Assembly: GCA_002419125.1 (NCBI GenBank)
Contig: DIFL01000038.1
Location: 982-28,097, forward strand
Length of the DNA: 27,116 nucleotides
Source: Candidatus Dojkabacteria bacterium UBA5749
GTDB lineage: Bacteria; Patescibacteriota; Dojkabacteria; SC72
Direction: 5' to 3'
A program made the position numbers and the translations under genes. This document shows positions 20,809-22,665 of the stretch, piece after piece. How positions within the stretch are numbered: position 1 is the first letter of the stretch; the number at the start of each line of letters is the position of its first letter. The notes below the pieces were generated by a model. That model did not search any database. It was not told the DNA's origin and was given only the letters and a program-made list of their open reading frames with translations.

Positions 20809-20883
20809 AAGTTTCTTTTTCAATTATTGATTTGTACCAGGTTTGTATATACTATATATGTATATATTTTATCCTTTATCAAT

Positions 20884-21768
20884 ATGAATAAGAGAGCATT
20901 ATTTATTATCCTAGGTAGTCTAGGGATTTTTGTTCTTCTAGGTCTATTAGGTGTGTATTTCTTTGGGAGTAGCCCAAGATATTACAGTACTGGTGGTGAA
21001 TATGATATGGCAGGTTCTGGTAAAGTGACTGATTCTTACCTTCCTGTTCCTTCTTTCGAAGAGACTGCTTCTTTGGCTCCAGATCAGATGGTAAATGATA
21101 TAGAGGGCTCTAAGGTTCAGAAGAATGGTAGTATTAATCTTTTGGTTGAGGGAATTGATGCTGCTGTTAATGATTTAAAGGCTGTAAATGGTATGTTTGG
21201 TGGTGTTATAACAAATATTTATGATAATGGTAGAGGTAATGATAGGAATGTATCAATTACTGTTAAGGTTCCTGTAGGAAAGTTTGAACTTTTCTATGAG
21301 GAATTAAGAAAGATAGATGGTGAGGTTACGTATGCCAATGTATCTACTACAGATGTAACAGAGGAGTATATTGATATTACTTCAAGGTTAGCTAATTTAA
21401 AGAGTACGGAGGCTCAGTTAGTAAAAGTATTGGAGAGGGCTGAAACTGTTACTGATATTCTTGCAGTTCAAAGAGAGTTAAATACAGTTAGAGGGGATAT
21501 TGAGAGTTATGAACAGAGAAAGAGGTATTTTGATTCTCAAACAGATTACTCTTTCATCTCAGTTTCCTTTAGTGTTGATAAAACAGGGTTGAATGTTACA
21601 GAGGATGAGTGGAAGCCATGGGGAGAGGTTAAAGCAGCTGTTAAATCGTTAATTGAAGTACTTAAGGGTTTTGTAAACATGGTTATCTGGATTGTTATAT
21701 TCTCACCAATTGTACTCATTCCTTTCTTTGTGGTTAAGTATCTTGTTAAGAGGAAGAAGGCTAATTAA
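20884..21768 (+). CDS. DUF4349-like membrane protein (N- and C-terminal TM, coiled coil)
   Basis: ATG 20884; ITVKVP..KF, DVTEEYIDI.SRL.NL...E..L..VL.RAE.V.DIL.VQREL..VRGDIES.E.R..Y...QTDYS.I. Confidence 0.85.
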   Translation: MNKRALFIILGSLGIFVLLGLLGVYFFGSSPRYYSTGGEYDMAGSGKVTDSYLPVPSFEETASLAPDQMVNDIEGSKVQKNGSINLLVEGIDAAVNDLKAVNGMFGGVITNIYDNGRGNDRNVSITVKVPVGKFELFYEELRKIDGEVTYANVSTTDVTEEYIDITSRLANLKSTEAQLVKVLERAETVTDILAVQRELNTVRGDIESYEQRKRYFDSQTDYSFISVSFSVDKTGLNVTEDEWKPWGEVKAAVKSLIEVLKGFVNMVIWIVIFSPIVLIPFFVVKYLVKRKKAN

Positions 21769-21778
21769 CTAACAAAAA

Positions 21779-21787
21779 TGGTATAAT
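21779..21787 (+). promoter_or_regulatory. extended -10 promoter of rnpB
   Basis: TG-G-TATAAT ends 5 nt before the 5' strand of RNase P helix P1. Confidence 0.8.
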
Positions 21788-21792
21788 ATATT

Positions 21793-22093
21793 GTGTAAGT
21801 ATCATAGATGATTGCGCTAATTTAACAATTAGTGAGGAAAGTCCGGACTCCATGTCAGCTGTGAACATATTACAGTAGGTGCCAATGAAAATTGGAAGGG
21901 AGTGATCTTTTGGAGAAAAGGGCAACAGAAAGTTATACCGCCTAAGCAATTAGGTAAGGGTGAAATGGTAGTGTAAGAGACTACCGGGTATTGTAGTAAT
22001 ACAGTACTGCGAGGCAACCCCCCTTGGAGCAAGGTTAAACCGCATAGATAGATGATCATCTAAAACAGAATCCGGCTTATTTGATACTTACAC
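21793..22093 (+). ncRNA. rnpB: RNase P RNA (type-A-like S domain, reduced catalytic domain)
   Basis: GAGGAAAGTCC (21834-21844) and ACAGAATCCGGCTTA (22065-22079) P4 signatures; P1 GTGTAAGTATCA pairs with TGATACTTACAC; internal GCAACAGAAAG, TAAGGGTGAAA, GTAAGAG, GGAGCAAG. Confidence 0.97.
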
Positions 22094-22107
22094 ATTTCCA
22101 CTTTTTG

Positions 22108-22143: not shown

Positions 22144-22665
22144 GTGATTGAGATTTGGAAACAAACAGATTCAGACAATACTGAGGTTAAGACTGAAGAG
22201 ATTCTTACAAAAGTCAAAAGTATGTATGCTCTAGGTTACATTACTGATGATAATCCATCCCAGATAAATGGTTGTACTGGCTTAAGTCAGGTTCTTCTTT
22301 ATAGTCTTCCAATTGATAACGAATTAGATTTATTAGAATATGAGGAAGGTATTCATGATTTTGCTGAAGAGATGGAAGATGTCCATTTTGGTACTGTTGA
22401 TATCCCTAGAGGCTCTTTTCTTGAGAGGATAAGTGTGATTAAACTTGCTCAAGCAGTAATTGGAAGCATTCTAACAGATGATAATCATTCGGGATGGAAC
22501 AAATTCTCAGGTTTAGAGCAGGCTATCTGTTACGAATTTGGACCTATTCCATTGAATAGAATTAGTGAAATTAAAGAAAAGATTAAATCTATGATGCCTG
22601 AAATACTTGGGGGAGTTCGAGGAAGGGAGAGATATCGTCCTAAGGATTCTAAGGCTGTGTATTAA
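22144..22665 (+). CDS. Hypothetical acidic protein, 173 aa
   Basis: Open frame filling the gap between rnpB and fmt, host-like codon usage, own promoter-like motif; no family recognised. Confidence 0.75.
   Translation: MIEIWKQTDSDNTEVKTEEILTKVKSMYALGYITDDNPSQINGCTGLSQVLLYSLPIDNELDLLEYEEGIHDFAEEMEDVHFGTVDIPRGSFLERISVIKLAQAVIGSILTDDNHSGWNKFSGLEQAICYEFGPIPLNRISEIKEKIKSMMPEILGGVRGRERYRPKDSKAVY

Follow-up and report, generated by a model that had tools for sequence, protein, structure and literature searches.

A reduced RNase P RNA with a stub P15 in Candidatus Dojkabacteria

RNase P is the enzyme that trims tRNA precursors, and rnpB is the gene for its RNA subunit. In this RNA the GGU of the L15 loop normally pairs with the 3'-RCCA of the tRNA, which raises the affinity for substrate and for Mg2+, mainly in the RNA-alone reaction. 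P18 braces both domains of the RNA by docking on P8.

The closest described RNAs are those reported by Lui, Nielsen and Arkin (2021, PLoS Comput Biol; PMC8172020), who examined the RNase P RNAs of 35 circular CPR genomes. According to the text of that study, many CPR RNase P RNAs are without P13, P14, P16, P17 or P18, and the CCA-binding GGU motif is lost in 23 of the 35 RNAs. The same text describes one circularised Dojkabacteria genome, SRX1775579_bin_0, whose RNase P RNA is without most of P15 (PMC8172020, S7 Fig). Our search of the literature found no other paper on the structure of CPR RNase P. Archaeal type M RNAs and eukaryotic RNAs are without the L15 GGU, and the corresponding tRNA genes do not encode CCA (PMC4919922). 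In solved bacterial enzymes J5/15 stacks on the acceptor stem and contacts leader base N-1 (PMC4919922), and in solved type A RNAs L8, L9 and L14 dock on P4, P1 and P8 (PMC8457005). In Bacilli P5.1 and P15.1 are thought to replace the P6 bridge (PMC12974513).

The rnpB gene and its helix map

We identified an rnpB gene of 301 nt at positions 21795-22095 on the forward strand of the window, by which we mean the whole 27,116-nt stretch of DNA that was analysed. In an Rfam cmscan of the window the gene matches RF00010 (RNaseP_bact_a) end to end, with model positions 1-367 aligned and a score of 157.8 bits (E 2.4e-49; gathering score 100 bits). RF00010 is the sole Rfam family found by the covariance-model scan of the window and the only member of clan CL00002 that cmscan keeps at this locus, and the RNA belongs to the family on that basis. 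A chance match is excluded by the bit score together with the covariation observed in 39 homologues. The earlier note, which was made from the letters of the sequence, had placed an RNase P RNA at 21793-22093, and this call is confirmed to within 2 nt. The gene is single-copy in an RF00010 scan of the 79% complete genome assembly (635,623 bases, 58 contigs, 32.6% GC).

The gene is intergenic, with a DUF4349 gene (20827-21768) before it and a 173-aa ORF to which no family is assigned (22144-22665) after it. A putative extended -10 promoter-like element ends 7 nt before P1 begins (Table 1), and a consensus promoter scan lists a weaker overlapping site, TTAACT-16-TATATT, at 21765-21792. Two antisense ORFs of 62 and 76 aa lie over rnpB on the minus strand (21761-21949 and 21829-22059). 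These are almost certainly spurious and not genes, and gene callers could pick them up. For annotation purposes, an rnpB of about 300 nt is normal for Dojkabacteria.

Table 1. Promoter-like element and structural features of the rnpB RNA, in window coordinates
Feature	Position	Strand	Basis
Extended -10 promoter-like element TGgTATAAT (putative)	21779-21787	+	read directly from sequence
P1 5' strand	21795-21804, partner 22082-22091	+	10 standard pairs; 99.5% paired in 39 sequences, 9 compensatory
P2 5' strand	21806-21813, partner 22054-22061	+	8 standard pairs; 96% paired, 6 compensatory
P3 hairpin	21815-21834	+	8 bp and UAAC loop; 7 compensatory pairs
P4 5' strand AAGUCCGG	21839-21846, partner 22072-22078	+	bulged U 21842; 100% paired in 39 sequences
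P5 5' strand CUCC	21848-21851, partner GGAG 22026-22029	+	drawn pairs and pair counts
J5/7 hairpin CUGUGA-ACAUA-UUACAG (6 bp, loop ACAUA)	21859-21875	+	RNAalifold and pair counts
P7 5' strand GGUG, bulged U	21878-21881, partner 22022-22024	+	drawn pairs and pair counts
P8 (GAAA loop) and P9 (GUGA loop) hairpins	21882-21911	+	cmscan, RNAalifold, pair counts
P10/P11 5' strands, ACAGAAA junction, short P12 (GCAA loop)	21912-21959	+	cmscan, drawn pairs, invariant blocks
AAGGGUGAAA junction, P13, P14, P11/P10 3' strands	21960-22021	+	cmscan, RNAalifold, drawn pairs, pair counts
J5/15, CAA of conserved GAGCAAG	22030-22032	+	kept in 19/19 aligned sequences
P15 stub, 3-bp hairpin GGU-UAA-ACC	22033-22041	+	99.1% paired in 39 sequences
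GC and AUAGAUAGAU, J18/2-type junction	22042-22053	+	cmscan and conservation; directly after stub

The helices were written out on the 301-nt RNA. P1-P5, P7-P14 and a P15 of 3 bp can be drawn with standard pairs throughout, and the MFE fold gives the same hairpins (z = -3.4 compared with shuffles). The helices that the earlier note had recognised by manual folding (P1, P2, P3, P4, P8, P9, P12, P13 and P14) are all drawable, and the details it gave are right to within 1-2 nt. The strands of P2 are AGAUGAUU and GAUCAUCU, and the 5' strand of P4 lies within a block of invariant alignment columns, GAGGAAAGUCCGG. P7 has 5 bp in other genera, and one partner base is lost in genus g1. P8 is CCAAU-GAAA-AUUGG (21882-21895), and P12 consists of 6 bp and a GCAA loop, including CCUAA-GCAA-UUAGG. 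The pairing of P13 (21967-21985) and P14 (21987-22010, with a GUAA loop) is 97-99%, and compensatory changes are seen at 3 pairs of P13 and at 8 of P14.

The hallmarks of a bacterial RNase P RNA are present: the P4 pseudoknot, CR-I (GAGGAAAGUCC), CR-V (ACAGAAnnCGGCUUA), the bulged U in P4 and the GCAA of J5/15. The catalytic core is thus retained, comprising P1-P5, CR-I, CR-V, the P4 bulged U, J5/15 and the A-rich junction preceding P2, and the specificity domain (S-domain) is complete from P7 through P14. The length of P12 varies within the window's genus. It is about 31 nt longer in two species of that genus (L019:1321-1652 and L022:1501-1832), in which the RNA reaches 332 nt.

The P15 stub across the lineage

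Between the AGCAAG of J5/15 and the J18/2 motif AGAUAGAU there are only 12 nt (GUUAAACCGCAU), and these contain the P15 stub. In the cmscan alignment nothing is left of the 43-nt insert that the model has inside P15 (L15, P16 and P17), nor of its 24-nt P18 insert. P18 is absent because GC-AUAGAUAGAU follows the stub directly, and P6 is impossible because P17 is absent. The earlier note had read P15 as a hairpin of at most 3 bp and P16, P17 and P18 as missing, and it had proposed an Infernal alignment to Rfam as a check. The alignment agrees with that reading, and both the coordinates and the sequence of the stub are as it gave them. We also sought an alternative fold that would restore L15, P16-17 and P18, which the earlier note had named as the outcome that would count against it. 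None is possible, since a spacer of 12 nt cannot hold any of these elements.

Pair counts and controls in which the partner column was slid were computed in Python on 39 distinct aligned sequences of the lineage. The high pairing of the stub (Table 1) compares with 26-68% when the partner column is slid, and all three of its pairs show compensatory changes (GC/AU/CG, GC/AU/CG and UA/CG/AU/GC). The stem is 3-6 bp long across genera, and the 3-bp triloop form found in the window's genus would by itself be only marginally stable. As the covarying 5' strand of a closed hairpin, GGU is paired in the stub, and no conserved single-stranded GGU is left.

The RNA is widespread among the relatives of the window's genome, with RF00010 scoring above the cut-off in 38 of 41. 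In the window's own family (f1) the RNAs are 291-332 nt long. We read the 3' halves in 30 relatives from the window's order and in one genome of a sister family (f6, L186). In all 30 RNAs read from the order only a short hairpin follows AGCAAG. The stub is also present, and P18 absent, in L186, which is the only sampled sister-family genome of the class. GC-AUAGAUAGAU comes directly after the stub in families f1, f3 and f4, with no P18. L15, P16-17 and P18 are absent in all RNAs read from f1, f3, f4 and f6, and the S-domain is untouched. In families f2 and f5 (L002, L003, L004, L008, L014, L018, L021 and L028) the stub is kept and the site of P18 is occupied by 60-130 nt of other hairpins, which may be an elaborated P18 or new elements.

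RNAalifold applied to 19 sequences recovers P1, P2, P3, P5, the J5/7 hairpin, P8, P9, P12, P13, P14 and the stub, and all helices are 93-100% paired in the 39 distinct sequences. In the 19-sequence alignment no variation is seen in P4, in J5/15, in the A-rich junction that precedes P2 or in those junctions of the S-domain by which the tRNA elbow is read. The compensatory changes and the invariant blocks are those of a working RNA under purifying selection and not of one in decay. Among the matches listed, the RNA identity to rnpB is 94.6% for L040, 87.7% for L096 and about 79-80% for L075 and L083, all of which are labelled Candidatus Dojkabacteria. Near-identical RNAs carry the label "uncultured Candidatus Saccharibacteria" in one third-party assembly project. 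The window's class contributes 6 of the 150 genomes in an even sample of the phylum, as would suit a class as small as Dojkabacteria.

Contigs were also scanned for the patterns AGCAAR and AGAYRRAT at most 24 nt apart, which gave at least 120 matches, and only those preceded by ACCCC...GRAG were kept. Most of these matches were false, since in Bacteroidota, Clostridia and Campylobacter the base or the loop of P18 also contains AGCAAG. A separate observation concerns a contig labelled as an uncultured Coriobacteriaceae bacterium (CASEER010000020.1), which carries a 314-nt RF00010 RNA with 62% GC and a score of 229.9 bits (L068:3462-3775, forward strand). In this RNA cmscan leaves 3 of the 38 nt of the P15-17 insert and 2 of the 22 nt of P18, and a comparably stripped catalytic domain thus seems to exist outside Patescibacteria.

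Substrate binding and the J5/7 hairpin

The earlier note had suggested inspecting rnpA and the 3' ends of the tRNA genes, and both were examined. The rnpA gene (G000 C21:14145-14480) is present in an rpmH-rnpA-yidD cluster and encodes a protein of 111 aa; it is found in 30 of 31 relatives, where its product has an ordinary size of 88-142 aa. CCA after the discriminator base is encoded by 11 of the 41 tRNA genes and is missing from the other 30. The tmRNA gene encodes CCA, and the genome also encodes a CCA-adding enzyme. A search of the 79% complete genome for a protein-only RNase P of the HARP type (PIN_5) found none. The ribosomal protein L34 encoded upstream of rnpA (G000 C21:13949-14131; L031:1281-1463) is 60 aa long, with a lysine-rich C-terminal tail of about 16 aa past the 44-aa Pfam domain.

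Given these observations, we consider it highly probable that rnpB is a genuine, functional RNase P RNA gene, a reduced derivative of bacterial type A that would recognise its substrate independently of CCA and most likely works with RnpA. In the mechanism we propose, the S-domain would read the elbow formed by the T-arm and D-loop of the pre-tRNA, J5/15 and P4 would sit at the cleavage site, and RnpA would hold the 5' leader, with no Watson-Crick pairing between the rnpB RNA and the 3' CCA of the tRNA. The remaining GNRA loops (L8 GAAA, L9 GUGA and L14 GUAA) probably keep the fold together. We infer that substrate is bound through the S-domain, the core and RnpA, and the enzyme would probably rely more on its protein. 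CCA-independent recognition is consistent with the lack of a conserved single-stranded GGU, the covariation of the stub, the 30 tRNA genes without CCA, the CCA-adding enzyme and the presence of rnpA. As 11 tRNA genes and the tmRNA gene still encode CCA, the enzyme may contact CCA in some other way.

Two other readings bear on this proposal. In the first, the stub might open and its GGU (22033-22035) pair with the 3'-RCC of the tRNA, so that CCA recognition would be kept in miniature. GGU does follow AGCAAG in 33 of the 39 lineage sequences, the stub in the window's genus has only 3 bp and a 3-nt loop, and CCA is still encoded by about one in four tRNA genes. However, other genera exchange GGU/ACC for GGA/UCC, AGUU/AACU, GAUAC/GUAUC or CCGC/GCGG and have stems of 4-6 bp. 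Such replacements are what an intramolecular helix would show, whereas a binding triplet would be conserved, and we regard opening of the stub as quite improbable. Alternatively, rnpB could be a decaying remnant, with another enzyme carrying out 5' processing of tRNA. Much of the canonical catalytic domain is indeed gone and the genome is incomplete, but the blocks of the catalytic core do not vary, and each variable helix shows compensatory changes among the 39 sequences. The retention of rnpA across the relatives and the lack of a PIN_5/HARP match in the 79% complete genome also speak against a remnant, which leaves this reading barely credible. We also considered and rejected that the locus is a pseudogene or an assembly artefact, and, by the PIN_5 search of the 79% complete genome, that a protein-only enzyme has replaced it. 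A reduced but working type A derivative, most likely acting with RnpA, is the reading we retain.

The hairpin that the earlier note had seen after P5 is present between P5 and P7, 1 nt from its estimated position. It is 93.7% paired in the 39 sequences compared with 28-44% when the partner is slid, and all 6 of its pairs show compensatory changes. The loop varies in sequence and in length (3-10 nt). The site of this hairpin is that of P5.1 in type B RNAs and of the 5' strand of P6 in type A RNAs. Simple P15 hairpins accompanied by a J5/7 hairpin are also found in RNAs of other Patescibacteria families (L164, L171, L157, L189 and L178), some of which have GGU in the P15 loop and keep P18. This suggests that P6 has been lost repeatedly, together with the appearance of a hairpin at the P5.1 position, in unrelated CPR families.

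The earlier note had proposed that the extra helix may compensate for the missing parts, and in its strongest form this would make the hairpin a strut that is needed in place of the lost P6/P16/P17 bridge, comparable with P5.1 of type B. Its position, the covariation of all six pairs, its co-occurrence with simple P15 hairpins in the other CPR families, and the precedent in Bacilli, where accretion of P5.1 coincided with loss of P6 (PMC12974513), favour such a role. However, the hairpin is missing in genera g9 and g10 (L009 and L007, respectively; also L063 and L070), in which the stub P15 and the loss of P18 are identical. As two genera without it share the same stub-P15, P18-less domain, the hairpin is dispensable, and the idea of compensation is weakened accordingly. 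In addition, the hairpin has no P15.1 partner and its loop is variable. By analogy with L5.1-L15.1, we checked by eye whether the loop of the J5/7 hairpin is complementary to that of the stub. Both loops vary freely in length and sequence, and the idea was dropped for want of support. A required strut is therefore rather unlikely. The hairpin may help folding, but it is not an obligatory compensation. The RNAs of g10 (L007:1501-1794) and g9 (L009:1501-1791), at 291-294 nt, are the most reduced forms in the family.

A more far-reaching proposal can be entertained only tentatively. The enzyme might be a natural bacterial RNase P in which a single RNA, its catalytic domain stripped to the extent seen in archaeal type M or eukaryotic RNAs, is joined by a single protein of 111 aa; the RNA alone would be inactive, there would be no CCA pairing, and the J5/7 hairpin, where present, would be an undescribed tertiary strut. 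We hold this combination to be possible and somewhat doubtful.

Relation to described RNase P RNAs

With the Dojkabacteria RNAs, nature provides a minimal case in which to ask which parts of the bacterial catalytic domain can be spared if RnpA is the only protein, and these RNAs would be handy for the biochemistry of CCA-independent substrate binding.

Compared with strict type A, the RNA has P13 and P14 in the S-domain. However, the entire insert that would hold P16 and P17 is deleted in cmscan and P6 is gone (defining features according to PMC7191817), P15 is a closed 3-bp hairpin in place of an L15 internal loop with GGU for the 3'-RCCA, and P18, a variable feature with a GNRA loop that docks on P8, is absent. 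As it is a member of RF00010 that is without P6, P16 and P17, we file the RNA as a reduced derivative of type A and not as a canonical example. The type A RNAs of Aquificales and Chlorobium resemble it in that they have naturally lost P18 and, with it, the L18-P8 strut (PMC8457005). They differ in that P15, L15, P16, P17 and P6 are retained.

The type B RNAs of Bacillus and Mollicutes share with the RNA described here the absence of P6, P16 and P17 and a hairpin, P5.1, between P5 and P7 (PMC7191817, PMC12974513). However, type B has P10.1, P15.1, P15.2 and a CCA-binding L15 and is without P13 and P14, none of which is true of this rnpB. The hairpin at the P5.1 position is the only type B feature found, P13 and P14 are present, and there is no sequence left to form either P15.1 or P15.2.

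The archaeal type M RNAs of Methanococci and Archaeoglobus are alike in being without P16, the P6 pseudoknot and the substrate-recognition loop of P15 (PMC4919922). They differ in that they are also without P8, P13/P14 and P18 and need at least five proteins, whereas this RNA keeps P8, P13 and P14 and is accompanied by a single bacterial RnpA of 111 aa and not by archaeal proteins.

The closest match is the reduced RNase P RNA of SRX1775579_bin_0. Judged against the text description in PMC8172020, that RNA and this rnpB come from the same class of organism, with P15 mostly missing in both. The earlier note had thus overrated the novelty of the architecture, which is standard for the class and of which the loss of most of P15 is published, in the text of PMC8172020, for a Dojkabacteria genome; that the architecture might prove standard was an outcome which the note itself had named as lowering the novelty. 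As the core observation is already in the literature, the gain made here is incremental. The account in PMC8172020 consists, in its text, of one paragraph on one genome, with no covariation or survey. To this we add that the stub covaries and that all the RNAs read have it, in five families of the order as well as in one sister family of the class. We also add the J5/7 hairpin together with its dispensability, and the count of tRNA genes that encode CCA.
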